Part shown: in pieces, positions 17,770 through 39,561 of the stretch
Layout: each line of letters begins with the position of its first letter
Position numbering within the stretch: the first letter of the stretch is position 1
Virus genome (UHGV): UHGV-0134778
Reading direction: 5' to 3' (one strand)
DNA length: 64,000 nucleotides
From: a virus
Notes under the pieces: generated by a model
Databases searched by the model: none
What the model saw: the letters and a program-made list of their open reading frames with translations, nothing else
Told to the model about the DNA's origin: nothing
Program-made: the position numbers and the translations under genes

Positions 17770-18189
17770 TTATAATGATTCGTATATTTCAAAAATCCGA
17801 TTTGCCAGGTCGTTACGGTAGCTGAATTTTTCCTCACGTTTGATCATAAGATCTTTATAGCCGTACTCTTTAAGCACTTCATTAACTTTATGGCGGCATA
17901 CTTTCATATTATCCTGCGCGTCACCAATAAATCTGTTGCTATGGTGCATGGCTTTAATTTCTTCTTCCAGGACCAGGGCAACTATGCGGACCGGATCAAG
18001 CTGATAGGCGGTAACATCCATGCGGCATTGTAAACGGCTTTTTACGTCTGCCACCGGATATACTGCAACCTCTTCCCCGTCAACATTGACAATAATTAGT
18101 TTACCATCGATTTCGAATCCTTTCGCCGCCGGACCGTGACAAAAAGCGTTATCAAAGCTATATGCCGGATTATTAGATTTAATGTTCAT
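17770..18189 (-). CDS. hypothetical protein
   Basis: 139 aa. First gene upstream of the minus-strand terminator at 17723-17750; promoter 18239-18267 and RBS AAGAGG upstream. Confidence 0.55.
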   Translation of the reverse strand: MNIKSNNPAYSFDNAFCHGPAAKGFEIDGKLIIVNVDGEEVAVYPVADVKSRLQCRMDVTAYQLDPVRIVALVLEEEIKAMHHSNRFIGDAQDNMKVCRHKVNEVLKEYGYKDLMIKREEKFSYRNDLANRIFEIYESL

Positions 18190-18238
18190 GGTGTTTTTAC
18201 CTCTTAGTTAATTTTCTTACAACTTCCCTTCAAAAAAG

Positions 18239-18267
18239 AATATAGCAAAACTGCCGATCCCTGTCAA
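18239..18267 (-). promoter_or_regulatory. sigma70-type promoter
   Basis: Minus strand TTGACA (plus 18262-18267), 17 nt, TATATT (plus 18239-18244). Confidence 0.55.
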
Positions 18268-18333
18268 CCAGGGATAGCGTAATTTTTATGTGATCAAGGG
18301 GCTTTATTGCCCCTGACCATGTAACTTGTTGTA

Positions 18334-18597
18334 TTATTTGTTGCTCATCCAGTTTTCCCAAGCTGCCTGATAATCTGCCTCACTACGGCGGATCTCTTCT
18401 TGCTCTTCAAGGCGGATCTCTTCTTCCAGGTACCCCAAGATGTCAGCCTTTTTAGTCTGGCGTAGCATCCAGTCATCTTTTTTGCGAGTGAAGATCTTAT
18501 AAGCTTTCTCGCAAACCTCTTTTTTGCTACCTTTCTGGACTTCAAGAACACGATAAGCCATATATTGAACTAATTTGAGCTGATCAAGACGTTTCAT
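18334..18597 (-). CDS. hypothetical protein
   Basis: 87 aa; leader contains hairpin GGGCCAAAAGGCCC and RBS AAAGAGG. Confidence 0.5.
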   Translation of the reverse strand: MKRLDQLKLVQYMAYRVLEVQKGSKKEVCEKAYKIFTRKKDDWMLRQTKKADILGYLEEEIRLEEQEEIRRSEADYQAAWENWMSNK

Positions 18598-18657
18598 GAT
18601 GTTTACCTCTTTGTGCGGTTCTGATTAGTGGGCCTTTTGGCCCGTGTCATTATCTTA

Positions 18658-18930
18658 TTACTTATGGCGGCAGAATTCAAGCGTTTTTAATTGATAATCT
18701 TCCTCAGCTTGGAGTACGACCGCCTCGATCATTTCGTTGGCATTGTTAAAGCCATAACCTTTAGCGAACTCATCCGCGCCACCTTCGTGATCATGTTCTG
18801 CGTTCATCGCTTCCACAAAATGGAATTCCAAATTGTTGAGGTAGGGGCTTGATGTTCCGTCCTCTTTTTCGATGAGATCCCAAATAGCATTAAAACGTGA
18901 TTCGACTTCTTGATTAATCCAGCTTGACAT
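18658..18930 (-). CDS. hypothetical acidic protein
   Basis: 90 aa; promoter 18985-19013, leader hairpin, RBS AGGAGAGAGG. Confidence 0.5.
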   Translation of the reverse strand: MSSWINQEVESRFNAIWDLIEKEDGTSSPYLNNLEFHFVEAMNAEHDHEGGADEFAKGYGFNNANEMIEAVVLQAEEDYQLKTLEFCRHK

Positions 18931-18984
18931 AGTGTTTTCCTCTCTCCTGGTTGTTGTGTGGGCACTTTTGCCCCTTCAAGATAA

Positions 18985-19013
18985 ATGTTACCTCACCCCA
19001 TGGCAGATGTCAA
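18985..19013 (-). promoter_or_regulatory. sigma70-type promoter
   Basis: Minus strand TTGACA (19008-19013), 17 nt, TAACAT (18985-18990). Confidence 0.45.
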
Positions 19014-19044
19014 CGGTTTTTATAGTTCTTATATGACAGGCAGG

Positions 19045-19061
19045 CCCGGTGATTGTCTCCC
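19045..19061 (-). repeat. 17-nt motif GGGAGACAA(C/T)CACCGGG, copy a (minus orientation)
   Basis: Plus strand reads CCCGGTGATTGTCTCCC; downstream of the minus-strand promoter 19090-19118. Confidence 0.5.
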
Positions 19062-19089
19062 CCTGTTCCCAAGTGCCGCCCGTTTAATA

Positions 19090-19118
19090 AGAATAGCAAA
19101 AGGGGCCGAACAAGTCAA
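19090..19118 (-). promoter_or_regulatory. sigma70-type promoter followed by the 17-nt motif
   Basis: Minus strand TTGACT (19113-19118), 17 nt, TATTCT (19090-19095); motif copy at 19045-19061 lies 28 nt downstream of the -10. Confidence 0.45.
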
Positions 19119-19147
19119 CCCCAAAATCAGTACCAAAACACTTTTAT

Positions 19148-19459
19148 TTATACGGTCCGATCATTGGCCTTTGTCCAGGACCTGGCGATCCGTTTCCCGG
19201 TCACCTGGAACGGAGGCTGCATTGTGTGTAATGAGTCCAGAGTAAGGGAGGACCGTTTACGGCGTATCTTCAGGATCGCTAACGTATTGTCCATCTCACG
19301 GCCAGGTCCTGGGCGGTATGGTGTGCCTCCAGCGTTAAGGTTGATGATCTCATGTATTGAGATCCGGCGTTGTTTTGCTTCCGCATCTTTGAAGATAGCC
19401 AGCGGAGGCGCTATGCGTTGCCGATACCAATCTAAAACGGTTGGCGTAATAGCGATCAT
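19148..19459 (-). CDS. hypothetical protein
   Basis: 103 aa; co-directional with neighbours and coupled to 19456..19647; preferred over the opposite-strand ORF 19053..19508. Confidence 0.4.
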   Translation of the reverse strand: MIAITPTVLDWYRQRIAPPLAIFKDAEAKQRRISIHEIINLNAGGTPYRPGPGREMDNTLAILKIRRKRSSLTLDSLHTMQPPFQVTGKRIARSWTKANDRTV

Positions 19460-19647
19460 ATTTTACCCCCTATGTAGTCCGGTCGGTTTTTCTCTGTCAT
19501 ACGCTTAAGCAATTCTTGCATGTTGCTTATGGCTTGTAGTGTATCCTCTTCAAGGGATGAATCAAGATAATCAGGATCATTCTTCACCTTGCAATGATTA
19601 TGATAACGCAGCACCGCCAGTACTTTTTTAACTTCTTCTGCTGTCAT
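19456..19647 (-). CDS. hypothetical protein
   Basis: 63 aa. Confidence 0.45.
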   Translation of the reverse strand: MTAEEVKKVLAVLRYHNHCKVKNDPDYLDSSLEEDTLQAISNMQELLKRMTEKNRPDYIGGKI

Positions 19648-19655
19648 TATTCCAC

Positions 19656-19790
19656 CTAAAACAATGAGTTAATATATAACATTAGATCGCTGACCACCAG
19701 GACAACACTGATCAGCACATGCCTAACCATAAAGGGAAAGATCGCCAACATTGCCACCACGATCCCCATGGTAATAATTATCTTTCTCAT
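19656..19790 (-). CDS. micro-protein, hydrophobic (44 aa)
   Basis: ATG immediately after the stop of 19793..20077; sequence is almost entirely hydrophobic. Confidence 0.3.
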   Translation of the reverse strand: MRKIIITMGIVVAMLAIFPFMVRHVLISVVLVVSDLMLYINSLF

Positions 19791-19792
19791 GG

Positions 19793-20077
19793 TTAACGGT
19801 TCACGTAAGTTTTCCCGTTTACGGTTATCGGCAGATCCTCCAGGTCTGGATCTTCTTTAAGGTCGCGAGCAAGTTCACCGCACCGGACGCCCTCGAATCC
19901 GTAGTACTCTGTCGTTCCGTCCTTAAAAGTTTTTGCGGCAAGGCATAAGCGATAAGTAACACCGATTTGATTGACGGCATGGATATCAGTTAGATCTACC
20001 TCTTTTGCCAGCTCTTTGGCCATTACAGGCGCATTAAGTCCAATAACCAAGGCAACCACTGCGATCATCTTTTTCAT
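19793..20077 (-). CDS. secreted/periplasmic hypothetical protein
   Basis: N-terminal signal-peptide-like MKKMIAVVALVIGLNAPVMA; RBS AGAGAATAG-like. Confidence 0.5.
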   Translation of the reverse strand: MKKMIAVVALVIGLNAPVMAKELAKEVDLTDIHAVNQIGVTYRLCLAAKTFKDGTTEYYGFEGVRCGELARDLKEDPDLEDLPITVNGKTYVNR

Positions 20078-20166
20078 GTTTTCTATTCTCTTTCTGTTGC
20101 GTTTAAGGCGGCGACAACCGCCTGTTTATGCTTTGTCGGTTAATAGGGCGTACGGTATAGATTAAA

Positions 20167-20391
20167 CTATGCTGTACGCTCAACTATGACAACGGCTTGA
20201 GGGATCTCACCTTCCACCACTATCAAGGCTTTTTTCTGCGTAATAGATATCTTTACCCGCTTCAGCGTGGCGGTAAAGTCTTTCATTTCGTCACGTGGTG
20301 TTTTAGTGCAATGCCAGATCTCAGGCTTACCTATTTGCAAGCCGCGTAAAAATTCCGTTTTTCCTGTTTTGTTCGTGATCATTTGTTTCAC
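20167..20391 (-). CDS. hypothetical protein
   Basis: 74-aa ORF. Confidence 0.45.
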   Translation of the reverse strand: MKQMITNKTGKTEFLRGLQIGKPEIWHCTKTPRDEMKDFTATLKRVKISITQKKALIVVEGEIPQAVVIVERTA

Positions 20392-20392
20392 C

Positions 20393-20497
20393 TTACCCGA
20401 TACCGTTGGAAGACAAGATCATATTAGCCATGGTTGCAATCAGGCCAATACCCAGGGCAATAACCAGGATCACCGCATCAATTAATTTCTGTTTCAT
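20393..20497 (-). CDS. micro-protein, hydrophobic (34 aa)
   Basis: RBS AAGAGGA 7 nt upstream; VILVIALGIGLIATMANMIL is a membrane segment. Confidence 0.3.
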   Translation of the reverse strand: MKQKLIDAVILVIALGIGLIATMANMILSSNGIG

Positions 20498-20587
20498 CTT
20501 GTTTTCCTCTTCTTGTTCCAGGTGGCGGACCATTCCGCCGCCTTATGTATTATGCTTTGTTAGATGGTTGTTTGTTGTCAAACTGTT

Positions 20588-20767
20588 TTAACGATAATCA
20601 TCGTACGCTTTATTAACCTGGCGAATATAACATTCAAAAGCCAGATCAATAGATTTATATTCACGGATATATTCACCATAGGAAACTACATACATTTCTA
20701 TAGCCTCCTCATATGCGAGGAGAATAGAATCCAAGCCTACGATCTCAGTCTTTGCAATAATAGCCAT
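20588..20767 (-). CDS. hypothetical protein (59 aa)
   Basis: Read manually; promoter 20817-20847, leader hairpin GGGGCAACAAGCCCC and RBS AAAGAGGA precede the ATG. Below the track cutoff. Confidence 0.4.
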   Translation of the reverse strand: MAIIAKTEIVGLDSILLAYEEAIEMYVVSYGEYIREYKSIDLAFECYIRQVNKAYDDYR

Positions 20768-20816
20768 GATTTTTTATCCTCTTTGTGGTTGGTGGGGCTT
20801 GTTGCCCCCTTTGATT

Positions 20817-20847
20817 TATATACTACAGTCTTATAGGGTCATGTCAA
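20817..20847 (-). promoter_or_regulatory. sigma70-type promoter
   Basis: Minus strand TTGACA (20842-20847) overlapping the upstream stop codon, 16-19 nt, TAGTAT/TATATA. Confidence 0.5.
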
Positions 20848-21077: not shown

Positions 21078-21133
21078 GATGATTTGCCTCTCTTTATTTT
21101 CATAATTGGGGGGCCTTTTCGGCCCCGCCAGGT

Positions 21134-21418
21134 TTATTTATTGATAGCGTGCAGCGGGAAAGGTACGCCAGGTTGATAGATAACTTTTACAACCTCATCA
21201 GGACAAAAGAAGTTGCAGAACTCACCGCAATAGGCCTCATCCTCTTTCAACTCTTCATCAACATACTCAAAAAAGTAGTCGATGCTTGGATAATCCTGGC
21301 CGGGATTATAGTCGACCATCGTTAATAGTAACTCTTGATCATTCCGTAGGATATGCATACCCGCTTTTAAGTATTTTGCTTCCATTTCTACTACATCGCC
21401 AACGGTAACAATAGCCAT
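21134..21418 (-). CDS. hypothetical acidic protein
   Basis: 94 aa; RBS GGAG. Confidence 0.5.
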   Translation of the reverse strand: MAIVTVGDVVEMEAKYLKAGMHILRNDQELLLTMVDYNPGQDYPSIDYFFEYVDEELKEDEAYCGEFCNFFCPDEVVKVIYQPGVPFPLHAINK

Positions 21419-21642
21419 GGTTTTAACTCCTATCTATCCGGTTAATGATTGGGGGCCGCCCCCCTGATACGTCCTATTATCCATATTGTAGGGCTTGATG
21501 CAAGTACTTCTTTAAATTTTTTTAAGCGCCTTGGGGGCCGCTGTAACGCTAAAATAATAAAGGCCATGCAACCGCATAGCCTTTATGTGATTATATCGCT
21601 TCAGGCCCTGCTAGGGGCCTTATTTTGCATCATTTGCCGGAA

Positions 21643-22033: not shown

Positions 22034-22234
22034 TTACAGATCTACAATCTCTTTAATTCGTTTTACTGCTGCCTCAGCGCCTTGAGGGTAGAAATTATGA
22101 TAACCAATCACGCGGGTAATACTGATCGCCGCTTGGTGGTCCTCGTAGTCGCCTTTGAATATTTCTTGACCATCAACCAGCACAGCAATTTTTTCTTCTT
22201 TTTTGAAGTTAATAACGCGGATATTGTTGCTCAT
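22034..22234 (-). CDS. hypothetical protein
   Basis: 66 aa; leader has hairpin GGGGAGACACTCCCC and RBS AAAGGGGA. Confidence 0.5.
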   Translation of the reverse strand: MSNNIRVINFKKEEKIAVLVDGQEIFKGDYEDHQAAISITRVIGYHNFYPQGAEAAVKRIKEIVDL

Positions 22235-22337
22235 TTTGTTTCCCCTTTTGGAACTTTGTCTGTGTGGTGGGGAGTGTCTCCCCGTTGATTGTTATTATCC
22301 ATATTCTGGACCGGATTGCAACACTCAGGAAGAAAAA

Positions 22338-22375
22338 TTTTTTGAAAAAAGTTAGGCCCCCAGGGATCGGGGGCC
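22338..22375 (-). terminator. intrinsic terminator (minus strand)
   Basis: Minus strand GGCCCCC-GATCCCT-GGGGGCC followed by TAACTTTTTTCAAAAAA. Confidence 0.55.
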
Positions 22376-23156: not shown

Positions 23157-23573
23157 TTAAAAATTATCGCCGTAAATCTTTCCGCTTTCTACCCATACCA
23201 CCACGCGAGGCATACTATCCCACACGTCTTGTTTTAGATTGAGCGCGTGCAATTCTTCGGTGGTGCTCATACCAGGCACGGGCTGATTGTATACTGCAAA
23301 ACGACCACCTGCATAATCATAGGCCAGAGTTAAATCACACTGGATCATCTTTTTGATCATGGCGTTAAGCATAGCGTTAGCCGCATATTGGTCACGTTTT
23401 AAAGGCAACTCTTTGATTAGTTTGCGATAGTTTTCGATATGGTCGCACACTGTTTCACGTGGAAGATCTTTCATATCTTCACGGAATGTAACCAGGTTAA
23501 ACATAACGGTGTCAATAGCCTTGGTGGTGTTTTTCATGATGTTTTCCTCTTTGTTTTGTGTGGGGCAAGTCAT
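23157..23573 (-). CDS. hypothetical protein
   Basis: 138 aa; TTGCAA-N16-TATATT promoter, leader hairpin and RBS AAAGAGGA upstream. Confidence 0.5.
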   Translation of the reverse strand: MTCPTQNKEENIMKNTTKAIDTVMFNLVTFREDMKDLPRETVCDHIENYRKLIKELPLKRDQYAANAMLNAMIKKMIQCDLTLAYDYAGGRFAVYNQPVPGMSTTEELHALNLKQDVWDSMPRVVVWVESGKIYGDNF

Positions 23574-23627
23574 CTCGCCCCCTTGATTTTTAATATAGCA
23601 GGTTTTTAGATTATTGCAACACTTTTC

Positions 23628-24251
23628 TTATGAAAAACTCATCTCACCATATTCATCTACATCAAACCGCCAGTCGTTGGCCTGGATGAGGTCGATCAAG
23701 GTCTCGACTGCAAATTGTTCGTCGTAGGCATTCTCCAGATCTACGTAAACCTTGCGAGAAATTTCTCTGACCGTCTCAGTGATCAACTCTTCCAGCTCTT
23801 CAACCTTGCTTTCTTGCTTGGCGGTCAGATTCAGCCAAGTAGTATCAATGTATCCGCTTACAGTGTTTTCGTGACTATGGCGGCTATATGGATCACGCTC
23901 AACACTTGCAGATAGCTCGCCATCGTGCATTGTGCCGAACAAGTGACGAATTGAGCGGAATTTAGTCAGAGATTTGACTTTACGCAAGAATTTTTCTAAA
24001 TCAACGTTTTCAGCACTGATTGACGCGCCGTCACCCTGGCACCAAAAGCCGGACCAATGTACTTCGGTATCTTCAAGGCCATACTCTGGAAAAACATATT
24101 CTTTATAGTATTCAATCACGCTTTCTGCAAAAAAGTTATCCCCGCTGTGTTCTTCTCTTTCGCGGACCATTTCAACGGCTTTTTCTTTTTGTTCGTCGGT
24201 CAGCACGTCGAAAGATAAGTTGTAACCTGTGGTAATGTTAACGGTGGTCAT
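23628..24251 (-). CDS. hypothetical acidic protein
   Basis: 207 aa; promoter 24309-24336, leader hairpin 24280-24298, RBS AGGAG. Confidence 0.55.
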   Translation of the reverse strand: MTTVNITTGYNLSFDVLTDEQKEKAVEMVREREEHSGDNFFAESVIEYYKEYVFPEYGLEDTEVHWSGFWCQGDGASISAENVDLEKFLRKVKSLTKFRSIRHLFGTMHDGELSASVERDPYSRHSHENTVSGYIDTTWLNLTAKQESKVEELEELITETVREISRKVYVDLENAYDEQFAVETLIDLIQANDWRFDVDEYGEMSFS

Positions 24252-24279
24252 GATATTTTCTCCTGTTTTCTTTATTAGT

Positions 24280-24298
24280 GGCGGGAAGTTTTCCCGCC
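24280..24298 (-). promoter_or_regulatory. leader hairpin, GGCGGGAA...TTCCCGCC family
   Basis: Perfect 8-bp stem with 3-nt loop between promoter 24309-24336 and the RBS of 23628..24251. Related hairpins at 26144-26160 and 26825-26843. Confidence 0.45.
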
Positions 24299-24308
24299 TG
24301 TGTGTTTA

Positions 24309-24336
24309 ATTATACTTATTGAGATTTACTTGTCAA
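24309..24336 (-). promoter_or_regulatory. sigma70-type promoter (consensus hexamers)
   Basis: Minus strand TTGACA (24331-24336), 16 nt, TATAAT (24309-24314). Confidence 0.65.
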
Positions 24337-24646: not shown

Positions 24647-24790
24647 GCTTTAAATAAAATCACTGTCAATAATATTTTTAACGCCATAAAACGGCCCTGG
24701 GCGATGTTTTCAGGTTAAGAAAGGGGATTGCATAGGTGGGGGCCTTTTTGGCGCTTATAGGGCCAACCAGGGGCGCTATTCGTAGGATAG

Positions 24791-24818
24791 AAATAAAAAG
24801 CCCCGCACAATGGCGGGG
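24791..24818 (-). terminator. intrinsic terminator (minus strand)
   Basis: Minus strand CCCCGC-CATTGT-GCGGGG followed by CTTTTTATTT. Confidence 0.55.
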
Positions 24819-24827
24819 CGTTGGTTG

Positions 24828-25025: not shown

Positions 25026-25386
25026 AGCTTCCCCCTTTACTGATTTCAATATTTGCCTGAATCGCCCGGATACGGCGTTTTATAACCTCCTGATCCGTGC
25101 AATCATATCCCCAAAAGTCTACAATTTTTGCGCCCCCAGCTTTTAAGCGGTATAGTGTTTCTTGCATCTTGTAAGCTGGGATCGGTCGTGGTGTTACCTG
25201 GTCGCCTTTCTCATCCTTGTACTTGATAATATAATCTTCATTGTCGTTGAATACCCAAAATGGGTATTCTGTAAGGGCGTTGCTCTCTTTTTCGTTTTTG
25301 GATTGGATCTTGTTTACAATTAAAGCCGTAGCAATAGCGCCAATGATAAAACTTGCACCGCTGATCATGTTACTTTCTCCTTTCAT
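25015..25386 (-). CDS. membrane-anchored hypothetical protein
   Basis: N-terminal ISGASFIIGAIATALIV; RBS AAAGGAGA. Confidence 0.5.
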   Translation of the reverse strand: MKGESNMISGASFIIGAIATALIVNKIQSKNEKESNALTEYPFWVFNDNEDYIIKYKDEKGDQVTPRPIPAYKMQETLYRLKAGGAKIVDFWGYDCTDQEVIKRRIRAIQANIEISKGGSYEN

Positions 25387-25443
25387 GGTGTTAATAAATT
25401 ATCTTTATAGATGGCCCTGCAGCCAGGACCACCGAAAAAATAA

Positions 25444-25689
25444 CTATTTCACAATGCCTACAAAACAGATCCCGCCTTCCCCGACGTAGGCAATATCGGT
25501 CACTTTATAGTCGGTTAAGATCTGTTTATTCAGATCATTAATAAAATCGGTCATTGCGTTGGTGTAGTTGTCTTCCATATCTAAGGCATAATCCCAGGTG
25601 TAAACCTTTTTACGTCCGAAGCCTTTTACCATGATACGGGCGCTTTTGGTGTTGGTAGGCGCATAATATTTGGTGATTAGTGCTGCCAT
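25444..25689 (-). CDS. hypothetical protein
   Basis: 81 aa; downstream of 45-bp element copy 2; RBS AGAGGAG. Confidence 0.5.
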   Translation of the reverse strand: MAALITKYYAPTNTKSARIMVKGFGRKKVYTWDYALDMEDNYTNAMTDFINDLNKQILTDYKVTDIAYVGEGGICFVGIVK

Positions 25690-25778: not shown

Positions 25779-26120
25779 TTACTCGTTTTCTTCCAGTTCT
25801 GCAAGCTCTTCTTTTGCTTCTTCCAACTCTGTCTGTAATTCCTGGTATTCTTCATCGTCCTCAATATCCAGGCTGTCGATGTAGTCGCTAAATCCGCAGC
25901 GGTAAGCGATAGGATCTAGCTCCTTGAGGATACGCGACGGAAGAAAAGAAATGTTTCCGATCATGATTTCGCCGTAGACCTCGTCTAACCATTCATCATA
26001 GTTTTCGTCGTACTTGTCCTCGTCGATTTCAAAGTTATCGATCTTGTTCTCAAGGTCTGCGATCTGTTTTTTCAGTGCGGCAACCTGAATAGCTTTTTCT
26101 GCGGTGGTCATAGTAGTCAT
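25779..26120 (-). CDS. hypothetical acidic coiled-coil protein
   Basis: 113 aa; promoter 26172-26199, hairpin 26144-26160, RBS AAAAGGAGA. Confidence 0.5.
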   Translation of the reverse strand: MTTMTTAEKAIQVAALKKQIADLENKIDNFEIDEDKYDENYDEWLDEVYGEIMIGNISFLPSRILKELDPIAYRCGFSDYIDSLDIEDDEEYQELQTELEEAKEELAELEENE

Positions 26121-26171
26121 GGCGTTTTCTCCTTTTGTGTGTTCTGGGAAGTTTTCCCGTTTACGTGTTTA

Positions 26172-26199
26172 AGTATACCGATTCAGATTAGCTTGTCAA
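26172..26199 (-). promoter_or_regulatory. sigma70-type promoter
   Basis: Minus strand TTGACA (26194-26199), 16 nt, TATACT (26172-26177). Confidence 0.55.
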
Positions 26200-26400: not shown

Positions 26401-26805
26401 TTAGTAAGTTTTCAGTACTTTCCCGTCCAACCTGTCAAGCTGAATCTCGATAGCTGCAGAAAACCTATTGTACACCACGTCGCCCATGGAATCCAACCAG
26501 TCTATGACGTTATATACTTGCTCTTTGTTCTTGCAGGTCCGGATCCGTTTCATGATGTAAGCCGGATCAATATTGGTACTTTCGTTAGTGTTCCCCTGTA
26601 CCTGATTTGCCGTATTAGTTACATCTTTAATGGCCTTTACCACCACCTGGAAGGGCTTTAAGGTGCCTTTTGCGTTCATCTCACGCGCTTTTGCGGCGCG
26701 GTTGTTATATGTTACACAACGGCGGCAAATGTTCACCAAATGCATGTCAATAATTTTTTCATCGTTTGCCAGTTCGTTCATGATGCGGCGTACGTTCTTA
26801 TTCAT
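26401..26805 (-). CDS. hypothetical protein
   Basis: 134 aa; leader hairpin 26825-26843; RBS AAAGGAAAAAG. Confidence 0.5.
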   Translation of the reverse strand: MNKNVRRIMNELANDEKIIDMHLVNICRRCVTYNNRAAKAREMNAKGTLKPFQVVVKAIKDVTNTANQVQGNTNESTNIDPAYIMKRIRTCKNKEQVYNVIDWLDSMGDVVYNRFSAAIEIQLDRLDGKVLKTY

Positions 26806-26887
26806 GATCTTTTTCCTTTGTGTTGGCGGGAAACATTCCCGCCTTTTGTGACTAGTTTACTTGAATTTTGCAGCGTGTCAACAATTT

Positions 26888-27548: not shown

Positions 27549-27966
27549 GATTTTTATCCTCTCTGTTAATTAGTGTGGTGTTGTTCACCTTGCGAGGATA
27601 AGAATAACAGAACTATCCGAGCTGTCAACCGTTAGTTAGAATTATTTTTTGGGCAGAATTCTCCAGCCGCCGCCACTGCCAGGTTAACCATCATTTTTTC
27701 GTACTCTTCTTTATGTTCCAACGCTCCCGCCATAGCCTTTTCAACCAGGGTGATAGCCTCAGCGTCATTAATCGCTACATTTCCAGGGGATCAAATTACC
27801 TTTCATTTTTGTACCTCCTCTTCAATTGTTACCTGCCCTGTAGCATAGGCCTACCAGGTTTGCAAGTTTTCACTCTCTCCTACCTGGTCAGTCAGGTCCT
27901 GCCAGGCTGGCCCCGCCAGGTTGCAGCGGTTGGTGCATTATGTTAGAAAAAATTTTTGAAGAAGTG

Positions 27967-27995
27967 TTGACAGCGGCCCCGCCAGGTGGCACAAT
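27967..27995 (+). promoter_or_regulatory. promoter-like element on the opposite strand to the flanking genes
   Basis: Perfect TTGACA (27967-27972), 17 nt, weak -10 CACAAT; followed ~35 nt later by the 17-nt motif at 28031-28047. Confidence 0.35.
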
Positions 27996-28030
27996 ATACC
28001 TATCGAAAGGACGGCAGGCACCGGTGACGG

Positions 28031-28047
28031 GGGAGACAACCACCGGG
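28031..28047 (+). repeat. 17-nt motif GGGAGACAA(C/T)CACCGGG, copy b
   Basis: Matches 28165-28181 and, in reverse complement, 19045-19061; each copy is 23-35 nt downstream of a promoter -10. Confidence 0.5.
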
Positions 28048-28110
28048 GATAGGCGCTGCATAAAATGAGAACGGTTATCATTATCATTTAAAAATTTATG
28101 CAAAAAATCC

Positions 28111-28141
28111 TTGCTTTCTTTGTCCTGTGTGATACTATAAT
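28111..28141 (+). promoter_or_regulatory. promoter-like element on the opposite strand to the flanking genes
   Basis: TTGCTT, then perfect TATAAT at 28136-28141 (19-nt spacer; alternative extended -10 TGATACTAT); followed 23 nt later by the 17-nt motif at 28165-28181. Confidence 0.35.
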
Positions 28142-28164
28142 AACAAGCCGGGGCAACAGGGGCC

Positions 28165-28181
28165 GGGAGACAATCACCGGG
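28165..28181 (+). repeat. 17-nt motif GGGAGACAA(C/T)CACCGGG, copy c
   Basis: GGGAGACAATCACCGGG; followed by GAGAATGATTATCATT, similar to the GAGAACGGTTATCATT after copy b. Confidence 0.5.
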
Positions 28182-28428
28182 GGTGCCCGTTATTCTGCAA
28201 ACGAGAATGATTATCATTCAAAATTCTAAATGAGAACTCCTCGCATTTAATAAATTTAATTAGCATGCTAATTACCCTCCGTAACAATTTCCTATAAAAC
28301 AATATCTCATAAAATATTCCCATATATAAATTTTAAAAATCCATTTCTGAAAACGAAAAATCGATTTCGTCCCCAAAAATTTTAGGTCGAGCGCCGGAAC
28401 GATTTCCAGAAAATCTGATTCAGAAAAC

Positions 28429-28511
28429 GAAAAACAGATCGAGTACTAAGAAATTTATCGAGAAAAATTTTCAGAAAATCAGGTATTTGAAATGAAAAAC
28501 AGATCGAGTAC
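28429..28511. repeat. tandem ~65-bp imperfect duplication containing an 18-bp perfect repeat
   Basis: GAAAAACAGATCGAGTAC at 28429-28446 and 28494-28511; units begin TTCCAGAAAATC (28404) and TTCAGAAAATC (28470); degenerate third copy near 28346. Confidence 0.55.
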
Positions 28512-28633
28512 CGAGAGAGATGTGCCGAAACTTTCTGATAGGTAATGGACTTATTGTTATAAAAGGTCAGAGGTAAGCTGGGAAAGTTCTGGTAGAAGGG
28601 TGAGAGTATGTGCGGAAAATCTGGAATAGTGAC

Positions 28634-28822
28634 TTAAAGTACGGTGCGAACGATAGAATGAGCAGCACAGCTTATCGTGCCTGTCTTGAAAAAATCCATT
28701 TTAGTTTTCGATCCATTTTCTGATTTTCTAAGAATTTTAAAATATCCGGCCAGGTGAAATATCAAAAGGAGGAAATCCATTTTAGAAATCCTCCTTATGT
28801 TTGATGTGCCAGGGATTTTCAA
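28634..28822 (-). CDS. questionable small ORF in a repeat-rich island
   Basis: 62-aa ORF with an internal AAGGAGG + ATG at 28779-28781 that would give a shorter product; overlaps direct repeats and a hairpin, so coding status is uncertain. Confidence 0.25.
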   Translation of the reverse strand: MKIPGTSNIRRISKMDFLLLIFHLAGYFKILRKSENGSKTKMDFFKTGTISCAAHSIVRTVL

Positions 28823-28825
28823 GTA

Positions 28826-29155
28826 TCAACTATCTTTGTTTTTAGGCTTGTACATGCGTAGAGGTATAGTCTTTGTAACATTCCATCTCCCCAACCCTTC
28901 CCAGTTCCAATTGTGAGCGTGATACCCGGTTATGCATGCACTGCTGGCGTGATCATAAGCATAAGAGAACGCTATGCGAACCAGGTGGGGCCAGTCTTTC
29001 CACGGCTGTGGCCCGTAAGCCTTTCTCCAACACCGACACAAACTAAATGTCTCAAGAATAGGCAGGATAACAAATCCATACACCACCACCAAGATGATCA
29101 GCGCAATGATTGTCAGGAATACATACCCTGCAGTTGAAATAATGATCTCTGTCAT
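28826..29155 (-). CDS. membrane protein
   Basis: N-terminal transmembrane segments (VFLTIIALIILVVVYGFVILPIL). Confidence 0.5.
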   Translation of the reverse strand: MTEIIISTAGYVFLTIIALIILVVVYGFVILPILETFSLCRCWRKAYGPQPWKDWPHLVRIAFSYAYDHASSACITGYHAHNWNWEGLGRWNVTKTIPLRMYKPKNKDS

Positions 29156-32366: not shown

Positions 32367-33593
32367 TTAAAAAGGGATGTCATCATCAAAGGTGTACTGT
32401 GCCGGATTCTGATCCATCGGGTCGTCTTCCCCATCATCTACAGGAGGAGCGTCTACAGTGTTTTGCTGTGGAGAGGCTTCCTGTTTGGCAGCTTGAGGTT
32501 CTTGATGGTCAGTGGTCCCAGCACCGTTCTTGATCCAATCATACAACGGTTCAGCAAGATTAGTCAAGACATCTTTTGCCTCTGCAGTAATTGCTACTGC
32601 AAAATCATCAACTTTCGTTTTCTTGTCAATACGGCGACAAGCGTTCAATACCGCATTACCAACACTGGCACCTACTTCATCTTCAGTTCGGTTGGTGGCT
32701 TGAGCGTACTCTTTCTTAAGCTCGATGGTGACCACGTGCAGTGTTTTAGCCACATCTAAAGGGCTGTCAATCTTAAACCCGCGATCCAGGATGATCTGCA
32801 ATGCATTGATACTGTGCCCTGTCTCTACACCGATGGGGTCGTAAGAGGATTTACGCTTACCACCAGAACCTTGTGTACCGTTCTCTGCTTTAGGCGGGTA
32901 GGCCTTGAAGCCGCTGATAATATTCCCGGTATCTTTGTCAACAATAGCCGCAACACGACCGCCAACCACCAGGTCTTTAAGCTGCTCATCGGAGACAACC
33001 ATAGCACCTTCGCCAATCTTGTGGTCATTGACAGTAACCACGTTACCAACAATCTGAGTCACATCACCATAGATGCGTAAAACGTCCTGATTGGCATTCT
33101 GCTGAGGTTTCTGCTTCTGGCCTTGTGATTGTGTGCCTTGTTGCTGTTTTTGTTGCTGTGGAGCTGCTGGAGCCTCTCCTGCCCCCAGCTTAACCATTTT
33201 AGCCAATGAGCCTTTGTAGTAGGTCTTACCGTTATGCTCATTTGCCTTTAAAGGGATATTTACGATCCATCCTGGCGTTACTGTTTCCCACTTGTCATCA
33301 ATTTTAACAGAGACGGAATCTTGATGACCTGGTTTGAGCAATTTATCACCCATGCTGATCCAAACTTCTTCACCACCTTGGAGTAGGTTATCAGAAGAAT
33401 CCAGCTCAGAAATCAGTAAAGAGATGGTGTGGCTGGACTCAATTTTCTTACCTTGCCACACAGTGGTTTTAATACCTGTTGTGGGATCAGCACCTTTGAT
33501 TGGCTTGATGCTGACACGTTTAATCATACCGTGAGCCAGTAAAACAGTTTCACGAGGATTCATCGGGTTGGCAAATTGTTGAATAACGCTCAT
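32367..33593 (-). CDS. SSB-like single-stranded DNA-binding protein with canonical acidic C-terminal tail
   Basis: Ends ...DDGEDDPMDQNPAQYTFDDDIPF; DDDIPF is identical to the E. coli SSB C-terminal hexapeptide. Gln-rich linker; start at the ATG coupled to the upstream stop (TAATG). Sits next to the replication genes. Confidence 0.55.
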   Translation of the reverse strand: MSVIQQFANPMNPRETVLLAHGMIKRVSIKPIKGADPTTGIKTTVWQGKKIESSHTISLLISELDSSDNLLQGGEEVWISMGDKLLKPGHQDSVSVKIDDKWETVTPGWIVNIPLKANEHNGKTYYKGSLAKMVKLGAGEAPAAPQQQKQQQGTQSQGQKQKPQQNANQDVLRIYGDVTQIVGNVVTVNDHKIGEGAMVVSDEQLKDLVVGGRVAAIVDKDTGNIISGFKAYPPKAENGTQGSGGKRKSSYDPIGVETGHSINALQIILDRGFKIDSPLDVAKTLHVVTIELKKEYAQATNRTEDEVGASVGNAVLNACRRIDKKTKVDDFAVAITAEAKDVLTNLAEPLYDWIKNGAGTTDHQEPQAAKQEASPQQNTVDAPPVDDGEDDPMDQNPAQYTFDDDIPF

Positions 33594-33958: not shown

Positions 33959-34040
33959 TGTGGAATCTCCGATTTTATTTGAACAACATAAAGGAGACAC
34001 CATTTTAGCATCTCCTTCTGTAAATTACAACAGGTATTTG

Positions 34041-35319: not shown

Positions 35320-35322
35320 GTA

Positions 35323-35627: not shown

Positions 35628-35656
35628 ATCTTACATCTACCCCAACTTGTTGTCAA
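35628..35656 (-). promoter_or_regulatory. sigma70-type promoter
   Basis: Minus strand TTGACA (35651-35656), 17 nt, TAAGAT (35628-35633). Confidence 0.55.
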
Positions 35657-36229: not shown

Positions 36230-36453
36230 AGATCCTCTTCAACAGCTACAAACTTGGCAAGTAGGGTGGTTCCATAGATATGATACTCACCGTTTGCCAG
36301 ATGGGAGATATACCAGGAGATACCGTCCTCGTCTTCGATCATATTGTTTCTGCGATCCTTATCGTAATACACCTTGTAGGTCTTTCCTTCTTTAAAGAAT
36401 GACAAGCCTGTCATCTTTTCTTCTACAAACGTAGCTTTAACCAAAGTTGTCAT
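36226..36453 (-). CDS. small protein, tandem paralogue set
   Basis: DEDGISWYISHLANG pattern; ATGA coupling. Confidence 0.45.
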   Translation of the reverse strand: MTTLVKATFVEEKMTGLSFFKEGKTYKVYYDKDRRNNMIEDEDGISWYISHLANGEYHIYGTTLLAKFVAVEEDL

Positions 36454-36734
36454 TGATCTGCCTCCTTCTTGTTGAGCCGGAACACTGCAATAATGACATT
36501 TCCAAGATGCAGTGTCAAATCATTTCCCAGATACCACAGCATCCCACGGTCATCTTTAATGAAAGGGTAACAATCTGGTGCCTTCCAGACATTGTACACT
36601 TTCCCAACCTGAAAGAAATCAGGCCCTGTTGGGATTTTGGTGCCAGGCCACACTTGAGATACCTGAACACACTCCACCTGCATAATAACAGGAATAGTCA
36701 TGGATGTAAATGTTTTTGTCGGTTCTACTACCAT
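36450..36734 (-). CDS. small protein, tandem paralogue set
   Basis: DDRGMLWYLGNDL pattern; start at the ATG after GAGAGGAG (the track start 36824 would overlap the polymerase gene by 41 nt). Confidence 0.4.
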   Translation of the reverse strand: MVVEPTKTFTSMTIPVIMQVECVQVSQVWPGTKIPTGPDFFQVGKVYNVWKAPDCYPFIKDDRGMLWYLGNDLTLHLGNVIIAVFRLNKKEADQ

Positions 36735-36783
36735 AAAAGTCTCCTCTCTGTCTAACAACACTTCCGTGTGTTGATAGTTTACA

Positions 36784-39561
36784 TTAGTGACAATCACCCC
36801 AGTTACGACCACACAAGTATTCACCTGTGATCTGGAACGGAACGCCCATCATTTTAGAAGCTTGCCAGAAGCAATGTACCACCATTTCGCCCACAGGGCT
36901 CCAGATAAGTTCAAGCTTTCCGTCATCGTTCAAGATAGGATCGTATACCGTATTTCCATCCCTGTCAACTACTTCGTTTCCTTCTTCATCCTTGCGTGCC
37001 TTTTTGTACTTATGACCGTCGAACACATGAAGTTTAGCCTCCTGCTGGGACTTAAATGTTTCCAGCTCTTCAATTGTGTCGAAGGTGTATACAGTTTTAT
37101 ACTTAGGTGTGTCAGGGACTTGAAGTTGATATTCGTCATGGTAATAAATAATACGACGAACACCCTCATCATACCATCCACGCTTCACCATCTGGTGGTG
37201 CATGAGTATCCCAACTAAGTCACACAATGATGCACCGCCATTTTGCTGATATGCATTAAGCAAAGAGTGTTTAGATCGGGTCCAAATGGCATGACCGTCA
37301 AAAGAGTAGATAAATTTCTTACCTGTTGCTTCCCAGAATTTCTCCAGATCCTCTTTACGACCCTTAAGACCTGGGTTGGCATCCCAGAGAGCGTCAATTA
37401 CTCTCTGTCCCAGTTCTGGAGAGATATCTAGCATATCTGCAACTTTATCTTTTTGTGCCCCGTACATAACCCCATACGTGACAGGCTTACCATCGTTACG
37501 AGACACCTCCCTGCCTGCTACTTTTGTATATGCCTCAGCATTGTTTTGGTGCGCATCTCCGTTACTTACAACATCATAATACAGACCGTTGTCAAACTCA
37601 AAGGCACCCCAGGCCCCGATGAGCTGCTCTAAGTTGGACCCGTCAATACCGATCTCAAAGTATCCTGGAGGAACACCCCACAGACTACGCATCTCTTTAC
37701 CCATAACCACTTTAGGAGATGGTTTAGGCATGTTTGCACAAATGCTGTGTTTCTGTCTGGAAGTGTTTGTTAATCCAGAACTTTTAGCAGGAAGCTTATG
37801 GTCAATCTTCAAACGTGGATGATTAAGAAGACCAGTATCAACCTTATCCTCCTTGATTGGATCAAGGACCGATCTACGGTTTCGCAAGGATAACCACAAG
37901 ACGATATCTTTAGCCATCTCTCCGTTCAACTTTTCAAGATTCGGACATAGGTGTCCAAACGTATCTTTCAGTTGCGGAGAAGTAATAAGCGCTCTGGCTT
38001 TTCTACGTATCTTCCCAAACACTTCCTTTTTAATCCTTTCTGAGTTAGGGAAGCTTCGGAACTTGTGCACGGTTGTCTGAAACTTAGCATCAGTTTTGTT
38101 CCAGAAGTTGATAATTAGGTCACAATACTCTGACTCTAAAAGCTCGTCCATATATGCATATACTCGTGCATCAACATCAGCATCAGGCAGAGCTTTCTTC
38201 TTGCTGTCCTTGGTTACATCTTTAGTTCTCCACATTGTTGGGAGCCAACCAGCGCTGATCAAATATCGCTTAATATCGTCCTGGTTGCTGATCTTCATAG
38301 GTATCTTGCAGTCAGGCATCCGCTTCTGCTGCAGATCACTTATTGCCTGATCCATTAGTTCTTTAGGTAAAGGATGTGGTGTAGAGGTTCCTTTGATATA
38401 CCCCCTCAAGAAATCAGCCATCTTATCTGGGTCTTTACAGCCCATCTCTTCACACCATTTTATCCCCATTTTGCTGACATCCCCTGTGGAGGTAAATGCT
38501 CGCTTAGGAGGAGCTTTGAACTCTAAAGCGCTCATGTCCACAGGATAGCCAAGCTTGTCTTTTAACCATTTCCAACCATTATTGGAGATTGTCCCATCCT
38601 GGTTAAACGGCTTTTCAGGGAACTTAGGCCGCTGAGACATTGATAACTCTTTTAAAGGAAGTTGTGGTTCAACACGATCAGCGATCTCCTTCATCCACGC
38701 ATCGCAGCGGTCACGTAAAGCAATAGCTCCATCTATGTCGAAATACACACCCTGTCGAGCCTGCAGCTCCATCAGGAAATGCTGCAGCATGCCTCGGCGT
38801 AATGCATTCTTCCAGGTAATCTTCTTGAATCCTTTAGGCTTCTCTTTGGCAGGGTCATACATAAAGTTCTGCATGTCAGATTTGCCGTAGAATACACCTT
38901 TTGATTCCGCTACCAACTCTTTCCAGAGCAACTCCTGGATGATAACGTCCTCGAACACACGATCCACATATTTCCACAGCGGAAGCTCACGCCAGTCATC
39001 GATTTGAACTTTCTGGTTACCAAGGGCATAGCCCCATGCCATAAGGCCATGAGGTCCAACAGGCTGCATTTTCTTGGTAACTGGATTGAATACTGCGTCC
39101 GGACAACCTTTTGGCAAAGGGCGGTCAGGCCACAAGATTCGACTCATCGCTAACGTATCAAACAGATTAACCTGGTGGTCGTTGATAGTTCCCATGCATT
39201 TAGGATCACGGAACATATCAAAATGAATACCGGATAATCTTTCCATCAGCATAAAGTCGTAACTGTAGCAGTTATGGCAGTTCAAAGCCGTAGGTGACCA
39301 GTCTGAATTGCCTGTAAGCCAGCCTTCCAACTCTGAAAAATCTGCTATGCGAGCCTCAAAATCTGTATAAAGGGTCTTCTTTGCCAGAATGAAGTTCTTA
39401 GCTTTCTCCACATCCTCTTCAGAGTAGTGTGTGCGGTCATTTAGAGGAAGGAACAGCATAAAACGGTTCTTATTCAGCTCTTTAAACAAACCGCAGTGAT
39501 AATAAAGATCTGGGTCTTCCAGCAAGCCAGAGGCCTCAAAATCGAACGACCACATGCTCAT
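36784..39561 (-). CDS. family A DNA polymerase with 3'-5' exonuclease domain
   Basis: N-terminal Exo I-like FDFEASGL, polymerase motif B-like DGKPVTYGVMYGAQ and motif C IIYYHDEYQ; 925 aa. Confidence 0.9.
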   Translation of the reverse strand: MSMWSFDFEASGLLEDPDLYYHCGLFKELNKNRFMLFLPLNDRTHYSEEDVEKAKNFILAKKTLYTDFEARIADFSELEGWLTGNSDWSPTALNCHNCYSYDFMLMERLSGIHFDMFRDPKCMGTINDHQVNLFDTLAMSRILWPDRPLPKGCPDAVFNPVTKKMQPVGPHGLMAWGYALGNQKVQIDDWRELPLWKYVDRVFEDVIIQELLWKELVAESKGVFYGKSDMQNFMYDPAKEKPKGFKKITWKNALRRGMLQHFLMELQARQGVYFDIDGAIALRDRCDAWMKEIADRVEPQLPLKELSMSQRPKFPEKPFNQDGTISNNGWKWLKDKLGYPVDMSALEFKAPPKRAFTSTGDVSKMGIKWCEEMGCKDPDKMADFLRGYIKGTSTPHPLPKELMDQAISDLQQKRMPDCKIPMKISNQDDIKRYLISAGWLPTMWRTKDVTKDSKKKALPDADVDARVYAYMDELLESEYCDLIINFWNKTDAKFQTTVHKFRSFPNSERIKKEVFGKIRRKARALITSPQLKDTFGHLCPNLEKLNGEMAKDIVLWLSLRNRRSVLDPIKEDKVDTGLLNHPRLKIDHKLPAKSSGLTNTSRQKHSICANMPKPSPKVVMGKEMRSLWGVPPGYFEIGIDGSNLEQLIGAWGAFEFDNGLYYDVVSNGDAHQNNAEAYTKVAGREVSRNDGKPVTYGVMYGAQKDKVADMLDISPELGQRVIDALWDANPGLKGRKEDLEKFWEATGKKFIYSFDGHAIWTRSKHSLLNAYQQNGGASLCDLVGILMHHQMVKRGWYDEGVRRIIYYHDEYQLQVPDTPKYKTVYTFDTIEELETFKSQQEAKLHVFDGHKYKKARKDEEGNEVVDRDGNTVYDPILNDDGKLELIWSPVGEMVVHCFWQASKMMGVPFQITGEYLCGRNWGDCH

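Follow-up and report, generated by a model that had tools for sequence, protein, structure and literature searches.

Why should so many small genes of one phage begin with their own promoter and a GC-rich stem-loop? The question is raised by a 64,000-nt stretch of DNA (UHGV virus genome UHGV-0134778; hereafter the window), in which such units recur in a leftward block of small early genes at 17.77–36.8 kb, with the minus strand as the coding strand. This block is 92–95% identical to many Vequintavirus genomes (rV5, FFH2, EdH4, RudolfGeigy and others), and by sequence the source of the window is an rV5-like coliphage of the genus Vequintavirus. A sequence-only reading of the window had described one stereotyped cassette throughout the block, in which a promoter is followed by a hairpin at the 5' end of the transcript, a CA-rich leader and a strong Shine-Dalgarno (SD) sequence, and had suggested that the hairpin stabilises the mRNA. 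The early-gene cassettes prove to be of the promoter-early stem-loop (PeSL) type, now found in Vequintavirinae and Stephanstirmvirinae, and not a new kind of element. Their stem-loops fall into two separable modules, of which one lies within the promoter and the other is tied to the start of the transcript.

Layout and excess of the early-gene cassettes

The full layout comprises a sigma70-like promoter, a perfect GC stem-loop 8–11 nt past the -10 element, a leader, an SD sequence and the ATG. Nine minus-strand genes carry it (starts 26805, 24251, 23537, 22234, 21418, 20767, 20497, 18930 and 18597; Table 1, with cassettes named by their upstream end), in agreement with the at least eight cases noted before. 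The hairpin of the 26881 cassette has a folding free energy (dG) of -14.6 and a z-score of -3.7, and its orthologues retain the stem and vary only the loop. A tenth downstream-hairpin copy, ahead of 26120, is degenerate (dG -6.1, z -1.0) and is an 81% direct repeat of 24283-24336 (repeat family D3), that is, of the 24336 cassette. The six hairpins that had been quoted as plus-strand sequences each occur once, five exactly where they had been placed (18630, 18960, 22269, 24280 and 26825) and one at 20794 instead of 20795.

Apart from one copy on the minus strand (45125) and one on the plus strand (9339), the downstream-hairpin layout is restricted to about 18.6–26.9 kb. The claimed extent of 17770–36800 therefore holds for that region and not for 28.8–36.8 kb, which holds no downstream-hairpin copy and where inverted repeats wrap the -10 element instead. 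The plus-strand copy lies ahead of hpf, the identity of which was confirmed (PF02482). It resembles the cassettes in its promoter and in its hairpin (AAGAGGG/CCCTCTT, 8 nt past the -10), but its leader is not A/C-rich, so that the same layout was only partly rightly claimed there.

Every cassette has an SD sequence (AAGGAG, AGAGGA or similar) 7–9 nt ahead of the ATG, and the description of a strong ribosome-binding site at the end of the leader was correct. Leader composition is A 58%, C 23%, G 11% and T 8%, against a background of 32/20/23/25. The term CA-rich is apt in so far as the leaders are A/C-rich and G/T-poor with ACA/CAC runs, but they are not CA repeats. They are predicted to be unpaired. 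This predicted state and the composition make the leader a candidate CA-rich translational enhancer.

Within 17.7–36.8 kb, 22 promoters of at least 11 bits precede genes, and many fit 10–12 of the 12 consensus positions. About 18 of the 28 genes in 17.7–27.6 kb have a promoter of their own, versus 7 of 22 in 28.8–36.8 kb; the earlier statement that most genes do holds for the former region and fails for the latter. Overlap of promoters with the preceding stop codon, also reported earlier, is borne out: the TGA of the upstream gene lies within the TTGACA -35 element of the next promoter four times on the minus strand (35655-35653, 31890-31888, 30654-30652 and 20846-20844), and an upstream stop codon lies inside the promoter spacer twice. 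It sits in the spacer of the 24336 cassette and just ahead of the -10 of the 18680 cassette. The overlap of TGA with TTGACA is an extreme case of intergenic compaction. True terminators split the early block into several operons, and most genes inside each operon have their own cassette. The neighbouring genes are all small and annotated as hypothetical proteins in eight annotated relatives, and the run ends at a DNA polymerase gene.

Hairpins are in clear excess over chance. Between 17.7 and 27.7 kb, 29 hairpins with dG ≤ -8 were found, about four times the 6.9 ± 2.3 of dinucleotide shuffles; 23 (79%) of them are intergenic, and intergenic DNA makes up 24% of this sequence. Under a strict definition of the downstream hairpin (a perfect GC stem 8–11 nt past the -10, with no more than 3 T among the 10 nt that follow), it accompanies 6 of 14 promoters of the early block and 2 of 39 in the rest of the window (p=0.003, Fisher test). 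Adding weaker promoters gives 9 of 23 versus 3 of 115 (p=3e-6).

Position, pairing and function of the stem-loops

The -10 and the stem are 10–11 nt apart in 26 of 39 copies from five phages (standard deviation of this gap 1.6), and the distance from stem to start codon has a standard deviation of 6.6. The downstream hairpins are anchored to the promoter and not to the ribosome-binding site. If transcription starts 7 ± 1 nt past the -10 (the usual 7-nt rule), the stem would begin at about +2 to +5, with 2–5 nt unpaired before it. The predicted 5' untranslated regions fold as one 5' hairpin with the SD unpaired, and 8 of the 11 do better than 190 or more of 200 shuffles.

Not all stem-loops lie there. 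Per subclass, the window holds 9–10 hairpins downstream of the -10, five with the -35 in the loop and three to five with the -10 in the loop; all stems carry the G-run first on the coding strand. A 63-nt repeat with the -35 in the hairpin loop is present in four copies (family D1), and the hairpin of the 18275 promoter has a counterpart with a compensated pair, ATCCCCtattgacaGGGGAT, in Mt1B1_P17. The proposed location at the transcript 5' end thus applies, as a prediction, to the downstream class, but hairpins embedded in a promoter cannot occupy the 5' end of the transcript made from it. Being absent from that transcript, they should have a role in read-through RNA or in the DNA itself.

The two kinds of stem-loop occur together in relatives. 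Most early promoters of Certrevirus CR9 and Salmonella phage SSBI34 have a G(n)-loop-C(n) hairpin in the 17-nt spacer or around the -10, and a minority have a downstream hairpin of the type preceded, in the sister genera, by a conserved start-site-like CACATAG. Seven CR9 cassettes (e.g. 21554, 17666, 15661 and 14830) carry both the spacer hairpin and the downstream CACATAG hairpin, which shows that the promoter-embedded stem-loop and the one anchored at the transcript start are separable modules.

Two hairpins on the minus strand, GAAGGAGAtgctaaAATGgtgTCTCCTTT (34018-33990) and AAGGAGGAtttctaaAATGgatTTCCTCCTT (28796-28766), have an SD - ATG - anti-SD arrangement, in which a perfect SD for the loop ATG makes up the 5' arm and a CCUCC-like sequence the 3' arm. 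From their sequence, they may sequester the start of an alternative or short open reading frame (ORF) from translation.

Comparison with related phages, which the sequence-only reading had proposed as a check, revealed conservation of the hairpins within the genus; in sister genera, as in the window, many are embedded in the promoter. Twelve hairpins were followed in seven other Vequintavirus genomes, and all are kept but one, the hairpin of the 20847 cassette, lost in phage Gotham by a 4-nt deletion. Restructured or compensated orthologue stems are found ahead of the genes starting at 23537, 21418 and 22234, with pairing kept in GGGGGCGAGatgaCTTGCCCC versus GGGGGCAAgacgtTTGCCCCC (23619 cassette) and GGGGGGcgGCCCCC versus GGGAGGtgatgCCTCC (21503 cassette). 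Mt1B1_P17 (Phapecoctavirus) and phi92 (Justusliebigvirus) have about 20 cassette copies each in their early blocks, far more stereotyped, with the consensus AAtAAAAAnnnnTTGACA-N16/17-TAAnAT-gtatcacatag-GGCGGCaatggtGCCGC(C/T)-cacaacagaagagag-ATG and the alternative stem GGCGGGAA..TTCCCGCC. A 92-nt cassette query matched 141 phage records, mostly at several places per record.

Other searches were less productive. A scan of IMG/VR with CACATAGGGCGGN{4,10}CCGC gave 67 single matches, about the chance level, and is uninformative on distribution. Rfam gave no match in the whole window at gathering thresholds, and the three matches at E ≤ 1 fell 24–60 bits under the gathering scores. MAFFT with RNAalifold on 40 paralogous cassettes gave no consensus pairs, as unequal stem lengths misalign; a trial covariance-model alignment was equally ragged, so no model was built and each orthologue was folded on its own. 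An RNase III site was discarded as the stems, at 5–8 bp, are by general knowledge far too short, and a CsrA-type GGA-in-loop site because, by eye, only a few copies have GGA in the loop.

The pattern of conservation bears on whether selection acts on the DNA itself, the palindromes being operators at which a protein of phage or host turns early promoters off when middle transcription sets in, or cruciform or supercoil-sensitive modulators. They overlap the -35, spacer, -10 or +1, which are classic operator positions, and in Mt1B1_P17 and phi92 the stem and loop are nearly identical in many copies (GGGCGGCAATGGTGCCGCTC). This genome, however, uses at least eight unrelated stem sequences (GGCGGG, GGGGGC, GGGGAG, GGGCC and others), and orthologues alter the sequence and keep the pairing, which argues for structure and not a sequence-specific operator. 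Moreover, the G-run always comes first on the coding strand, so that the repeats are oriented with transcription, and G.T pairs, which are mismatches in a DNA palindrome, are tolerated (e.g. GGGCGGC/GCCGCTC). A strand test on Watson-Crick cores and neighbouring juxtapositions, which counted 31 G.U versus 35 A.C, did not favour RNA. We give the DNA-level explanation only a slim chance.

In the 10 nt past the 11 downstream-class stems there are 0, 0, 2, 0, 0, 3, 0, 1, 0, 2 and 1 T (median 0), against 5–8 T after the stems of seven canonical terminators of the same block. These hairpins, lacking a T-run, are not intrinsic terminators, as had been said from the sequence. They share with intrinsic terminators a GC-rich stem of 5–9 bp, a loop of 3–6 nt and an intergenic place, but have no U-tract and lie downstream, not upstream, of the promoter that they accompany. 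Three of them (22321, 21503 and 19013) directly follow strong terminators (22375, 21586 and 19122, respectively). An identical 22-nt terminator hairpin with T-run, GCCCTGCCCGAAAGGGTGGGGC, is present twice on the minus strand, 10 kb apart (32351-32330 and 42497-42476), the copy at 42.5 kb lying 20 nt past a strong promoter.

Read on the plus strand, the hairpins at 24280, 26825, 20794, 20520, 20106 and 22265 were listed as terminator-like by a consensus scan, as if their T-rich plus-strand flanks stopped transcription entering the early block from the opposite direction. This T-richness is the A-rich region between the -10 and +1 read backwards. Furthermore, no strong plus-strand promoter faces into 18–27 kb, and a bidirectional terminator (17734-17751) already closes the block. 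We rejected such antisense termination, which appears most improbable, since the T-rich flank is not conserved in the sister genera, where CACATAG reads CTATGTG on the other strand.

Database records for EdH4 and ASO2A label these T-run-free hairpins as terminators, in keeping with the function originally proposed for PeSLs, by which all the stem-loops would insulate or attenuate, stopping or damping read-through from the upstream gene, so that the own promoter would be the main source of expression for each small gene. The 5' location would then be incidental, the place just past the -10 being one among several sequence-neutral slots of a crowded intergenic region. Hairpins indeed fill every free slot (-35 loop, spacer, -10 loop and downstream) in the window, CR9, SSBI34 and RB49, and those at 21126 and 20123 have no promoter at all. 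In RB49, the PeSL211/210 stem-loop (AGGGGATCACGTATCCCCT then atactacaca), which also lacks a T-run, cut lacZ expression as strongly as rrnB T1 (PMC2839356). Against this, the 0–3 T past the stems here contrast with the 5–8 T of the block's own terminators, and an efficient terminator 3–25 nt past its own promoter would abort the transcripts of that promoter too. The downstream hairpin is kept at 22321, 21503 and 19013, where strong terminators directly precede it and there is no upstream RNA needing termination or protection. Attenuation does not require tight spacing from the -10, and the two-hairpin cassettes of CR9 argue for two functions. We regard a general insulator or attenuator as doubtful, while giving it appreciable weight.

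We favour a joint reading of the PeSL-type cassettes, which we think has an even chance of holding as a whole, in which the downstream hairpin is a 5'-proximal stabiliser, the stem-loops are boundary structures in read-through RNA, and the cassettes are recombination points. Host RNA polymerase would start each early mRNA a few bases ahead of the stem, and the RNA would then fold into a stable 5'-proximal hairpin that hinders RppH and 5'-end-dependent attack by RNase E. The hairpin would also sequester the only G/C-rich bases of the leader, leaving the A-rich leader and the SD single-stranded for ribosome loading. In read-through RNA, the downstream, embedded and promoter-less (21126 and 20123) hairpins would mark intercistronic boundaries, by blocking 3' exonucleases or by weak attenuation. 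As repeats with partial homology, the cassettes could also act as recombination points at which small early genes are added, deleted or swapped.

The 5'-proximal part of this reading draws on the promoter anchoring, the CACATAG start region, the co-occurrence of both hairpins in CR9 and the three copies that follow terminators. Hairpins at the 5' end are known to stabilise mRNA by blocking RppH and 5' sensing by RNase E (PMC3997798). Like ompA, papA and synthetic 5' hairpins (PMC3997798), the downstream hairpins lie near the predicted 5' end, ahead of an unstructured leader and a strong ribosome-binding site, and their stem sequence is free while the pairing is kept. They differ in that their 5' end is a predicted one with an overhang of 2–5 nt, at or beyond the protective limit, and in that their short stems (5–8 bp) are repeated ahead of many genes and not placed ahead of one. 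The stabiliser idea fits one of the two modules, the downstream one, for which it is reasonable but unproven.

Several observations weigh against it. A predicted single-stranded overhang of 2–5 nt is borderline for protection from RppH and RNase E, and the +2 to +5 placement itself depends on the 7-nt rule. The stem-loops of RB49, CR9 and SSBI34 are mostly inside the promoter, for which a single, position-independent function is more parsimonious. Two hairpins of the window (21126 and 20123) have no promoter, and a hairpin is missing from four or five good promoters of the early genes (27628, 27347, 24646, 18267 and 30201). The only experiment on such elements, with PeSL211/210 of RB49, gave the strong drop in downstream lacZ expression, which was read as termination (PMC2839356). 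The strand test (31 versus 35) is uninformative, so that selection at the RNA over the DNA level is not proven. Finally, a lenient criterion (minimum free energy ≤ -6 in 37 nt) gave 6 of 14 early versus 6 of 27 other promoters (p=0.28). As the strict definition separates the two sets and the lenient one does not, it is the class of GC stems, and not any structure, that is special to the early block.

The first gene of the rightward unit, 54770-55759 (plus strand), encodes an Srd-like protein. Among PHROG families, 'Srd anti-sigma factor' and 'decoy of host sigma70' match it weakly (E 1e-10 to 1e-12), and by far the best match (E 3e-111) is with a family that bears the label HNH endonuclease; in Pfam it has no match. 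It corresponds to rV5 gp11, which has been called an Srd homologue (PMC3606486). T4 Srd is cited as stimulating RNase E against host mRNA (Qi et al. 2015, cited in PMC4980113). By analogy, the hairpin at +3 might be a 'self' mark that spares phage early mRNAs from an Srd-accelerated, 5'-end-dependent decay of host messages, a speculation that we consider unlikely.

Kinship with PeSL cassettes and gene exchange

PeSL cassettes were described in RB49 and phi1 (PMC2839356, Arbiol et al. 2010) and later in PST/T4 and nt-1/KVP40 (PMC4122927, Comeau et al. 2014). They consist of an A/T-rich upstream region, a near-consensus sigma70 promoter (TTGACA-N17-TATAAT), a stem-loop, and an SD and ATG at the 3' end (PMC2839356, PMC4122927). 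The stem-loop has five positional subclasses: upstream of the -35, over the -35, in the spacer, over the -10 and just past the -10. PeSLs cluster among ORFans of hyperplastic regions and are tied to insertions and deletions (PMC2839356, PMC4122927), and mini-circles were reported for RB49 and phi1 (PMC2839356). This earlier description from T4-like phages had escaped the sequence-only reading (PMC2839356, PMC4122927).

The motif features of PeSLs can be read directly in the window cassettes (gaataaaaattgTTGACA, taaaaaatagtgTTGACA, ttaaatttttaaTTGACA and ctataaaaaccgTTGACA), which have an A/T-rich element upstream, a near-consensus promoter, a G(n)-loop-C(n) in one of the positional subclasses and an SD and ATG, in a variable region of small ORFs with cassette-bounded indels. 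The same scan script applied to the hyperplastic region of RB49 returned the same parts in the same positions, e.g. aaaaagttgTTGACAGGGGATCaccGATCCCCTATACTacacacataccgaaacgaa..ggagaatcaaaATG. In both systems the unit is about 70–100 nt, accompanies each small ORFan of a hyperplastic early region as a single cassette, and is linked to insertions, deletions and replacements among close relatives. There are also differences. The lineage here is Vequintavirinae/Stephanstirmvirinae, whereas the PeSL phages are Straboviridae. The subclass downstream of the -10 is dominant here, in phi92 and in phAPEC8-like phages, but minor in RB49 (2 of 27), and the sister genera have a CACATAG-type start region ahead of the downstream hairpin. 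Terminator activity and mini-circles were reported for PeSLs of T4-like phages; the comparison made here is one of sequence.

Junctions of indels among relatives fall in the cassettes at 18602-18621, 20482-20517, 24664-24674 and 19648/20842, the first three with overlaps of 11–36 nt. In rV5 and Gotham, an additional ORF (ORF166) separates the gene with start 18930 from that with start 18597. Copies of a leader repeat (ACTAATCAnAAC..CACAnAAAGAG) flank it, the repeat being the leader of the 18680 cassette. In isim and Aya, an additional ORF lies at the cassette of the gene with start 20497, where a 36-nt overlap spans hairpin and leader; the flanking repeats were read in rV5 and isim. In MiataMamis, 538 nt are inserted between two tandem -35 boxes at about 24670, and in JEP1 1.2 kb are replaced between two cassettes. 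Cassettes and indels are not exclusively linked, as other junctions coincide with gene boundaries or with a homing-endonuclease insertion.

These junctions and overlaps raise the possibility that the repeats persist for gene shuffling or gene conversion only, with no regulatory role of the hairpin in RNA. Cassette parts (hairpins, leaders and SD regions) form direct-repeat families, and mini-circles are known from the PeSLs of RB49 and phi1 (PMC2839356). Pairing is nevertheless kept despite diverging paralogues and orthologues, where homology-driven recombination would favour identity, and the excess of hairpins and their promoter-anchored position are left unexplained. A recombination scaffold and nothing else is, in our view, quite improbable. 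The joint reading includes exchange at the cassettes as one of several roles.

In the rV5 record, the 90-aa protein encoded by 18930-18658 is annotated with a similarity to a protein of RB49; a tblastn search with this protein did not have RB49 among the matches listed. We found no paper on rV5-like or phi92-like phages with a description of these cassettes: the rV5 paper goes no further than a list of 33 promoters and 20 terminators, and the CB7 paper no further than a promoter consensus. We found no transcript maps for Vequintavirus, Phapecoctavirus or phi92 in the literature.

Small genes packed head to tail, each with its own promoter and strong ribosome-binding site, are also a feature of lambdoid morons and of the 'host-takeover module' of SPO1. 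Morons differ from the present cassettes in having an upstream promoter and a true downstream terminator, without flanking conserved repeats, and we know of no description of the SPO1 module that includes a promoter-anchored GC hairpin. Morons are also discussed in connection with PeSLs (PMC2839356).

Feature coordinates, neighbouring elements and significance

The coordinates of the cassettes, of the other hairpins and of the terminators are collected in Table 1.

Table 1. Cassettes, hairpins and terminators of the window (from upstream to downstream element within each row; spacer lengths in nt).
Feature	Positions	Strand	Promoter	Hairpin	ATG	Remarks
Cassette, downstream subclass	26803..26881	-	TTGACA-16-TAAACT	GGCGGGAATGTTTCCCGCC 26843-26825	26805	leader aacacaaaggaaaaagatc
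Degenerate cassette	26118..26199	-	TTGACA-16-TATACT	GGGAAAACTTCCC 26158-26146	26120	weak hairpin
Cassette, downstream subclass	24249..24336	-	TTGACA-16-TATAAT	GGCGGGAAAACTTCCCGCC 24298-24280	24251	z -5.1
Cassette	23535..23619	-	TTGCAA-16-TATATT	GGGGGCGAGATGACTTGCCCC 23582-23562	23537	z -3.6
Cassette	22232..22321	-	TTGCAA-16-GATAAT	GGGGAGACACTCCCC 22283-22269	22234	weaker promoter; directly after terminator 22375
Cassette	21416..21503	-		GGGGGGCGGCCCCC 21464-21451	21418	weak promoter; directly after terminator 21586
Cassette	20765..20847	-	TTGACA-16-TAGTAT	GGGGCAACAAGCCCC 20808-20794	20767	TTGACA holds upstream TGA
Cassette	20495..20581	-	TTGACA-18-CATAAT	GGCGGCGGAATGGTCCGCCACC 20542-20521	20497	weak promoter; z -3.3
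Cassette	18928..19013	-	TTGACA-17-TAACAT	GGGGCAAAAGTGCCC 18974-18960	18930	downstream of terminator 19122
Cassette	18595..18680	-	TTGAAT-17-TAAGAT	GGGCCAAAAGGCCC 18643-18630	18597	z -3.0
Cassette outside the 17.77–36.8 kb block	45039..45125	-	TTGACT-17-TAAGAT	GGGGAGGCACCCCTCCCC 45085-45068	45041	z -2.9
Look-alike ahead of hpf	9339..9417	+	TTGACA-17-TATCAT	AAGAGGGtttggttCCCTCTT 9376-9396	9415	
63-nt cassette, -35 in loop	26341..26403	-	TAAATT	GATGGCC-TTGACTCCA-GGGCCATC 26389-26366		T-rich upstream element
63-nt cassette, second copy, -35 in loop	25719..25781	-		25767-25744		
63-nt cassette, diverged copy	25385..25447	-		GGTGGTCCtggctgcaGGGCCATC 25433-25410		promoter hexamers degraded
63-nt cassette, third near-identical copy, -35 in loop	21973..22035	-		22021-21998		
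Promoter, -35 inside hairpin	18239..18275	-	TTGACA-17-TATATT	ATCCCTggttgacAGGGAT 18275-18257		without downstream hairpin
-10 in loop	35622..35656	-	TTGACA, TAAGAT	TGGGGTAgatgtaagaTACCCCA 35644-35622 around TAAGAT		TTGACA holds upstream TGA
-10 in loop	35282..35319	-	TTGACA	GATAGGGCCtaatatgatGGCCCTATC 35308-35282 around -10		
-10 in loop	30621..30655	-	TTGACA, TATAGT	GGTGGtatagtCACCAC 30637-30621 around TATAGT		TTGACA holds upstream TGA
Hairpin around -10	33990..34030	-	TTGTAA-17-TAAAAT	GAAGGAGAtgctaaaatggtgTCTCCTTT 34018-33990	34003	5' arm is SD for this ATG
Promoter-less intergenic hairpin	21110..21126	-		GGGGCCGAAAAGGCCCC		without T-run; ahead of gene 21077; kept in orthologues
Promoter-less intergenic hairpin	20106..20123	-		AGGCGGTTGTCGCCGCCT		without T-run; ahead of gene 20077
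True intrinsic terminator	24800..24819	-		GCCCCGCCATTGTGCGGGGC then tttttatttc		
True intrinsic terminator	22355..22375	-		GGCCCCCGATCCCTGGGGGCC then taactttttt		
True terminator hairpin	21557..21586	-				T-rich tail
Terminator	19102..19122	-		GGGGTTGACTTGTTCGGCCCC then ttttgc		holds -35 (TTGACT) of next promoter
Terminator closing leftward early block	17734..17751	-		AAGGGGCTTAGGCCCCTT then tctttttgtc		bidirectional

Between the two halves of the leftward block, about 1.2 kb (27650-28830) are without ORFs and correspond to the 'non-coding' box of the rV5 paper. This region holds two promoter-plus-core elements and short direct repeats (aaaatggatt.., ttttcgtttt..), varies among relatives (breakpoints 27700-27895), and may be an origin or a regulatory region.

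The core of these elements, GGGAGACAA(T/C)CACCGG, is present in three non-coding copies, at 19046-19061 (minus strand), 28031-28046 and 28165-28180 (both plus strand), versus 0.04 expected in the window by chance. A sigma70-like promoter of its own precedes each core by about 25 nt, and a variable outer helix encloses the core. The unit of promoter and core is kept in SSBI34 (~12745-12860) and in Certrevirus CR9 (~11960-12085), and the elements have no Rfam match. On this pattern, they are candidate small RNAs or protein-binding sites.

MiataMamis and JEP1 have an insertion of 640–660 nt at the 3' end of a 408-aa gene (33593-32367), at window positions 32369-32395, annotated in JEP1 as endonuclease VII. 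This is probably a homing-endonuclease insertion unconnected with the cassettes.

The PeSL-type composite cassette, described from T4-like phages, is hereby extended to large coliphages of a second, unrelated group (the rV5, phi92, phAPEC8 and CR3 types), which are widely isolated for therapy and biocontrol. For their annotation, a simple rule follows: a GC hairpin that adjoins an early promoter in these genomes and lacks a T-run is not to be annotated as a terminator. The split into two modules turns a ten-year-old, loosely defined assignment as 'terminator/attenuator' into a testable question. With promoter, 5' hairpin, unstructured leader and strong SD, the cassettes are compact, strong, ready-made expression units for E. 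coli. They also mark the sites at which early 'host-takeover' genes are swapped between phages. If the link to Srd were true, the hairpin would provide a built-in discrimination of self from non-self in mRNA turnover, common to Vequintavirinae and Stephanstirmvirinae.

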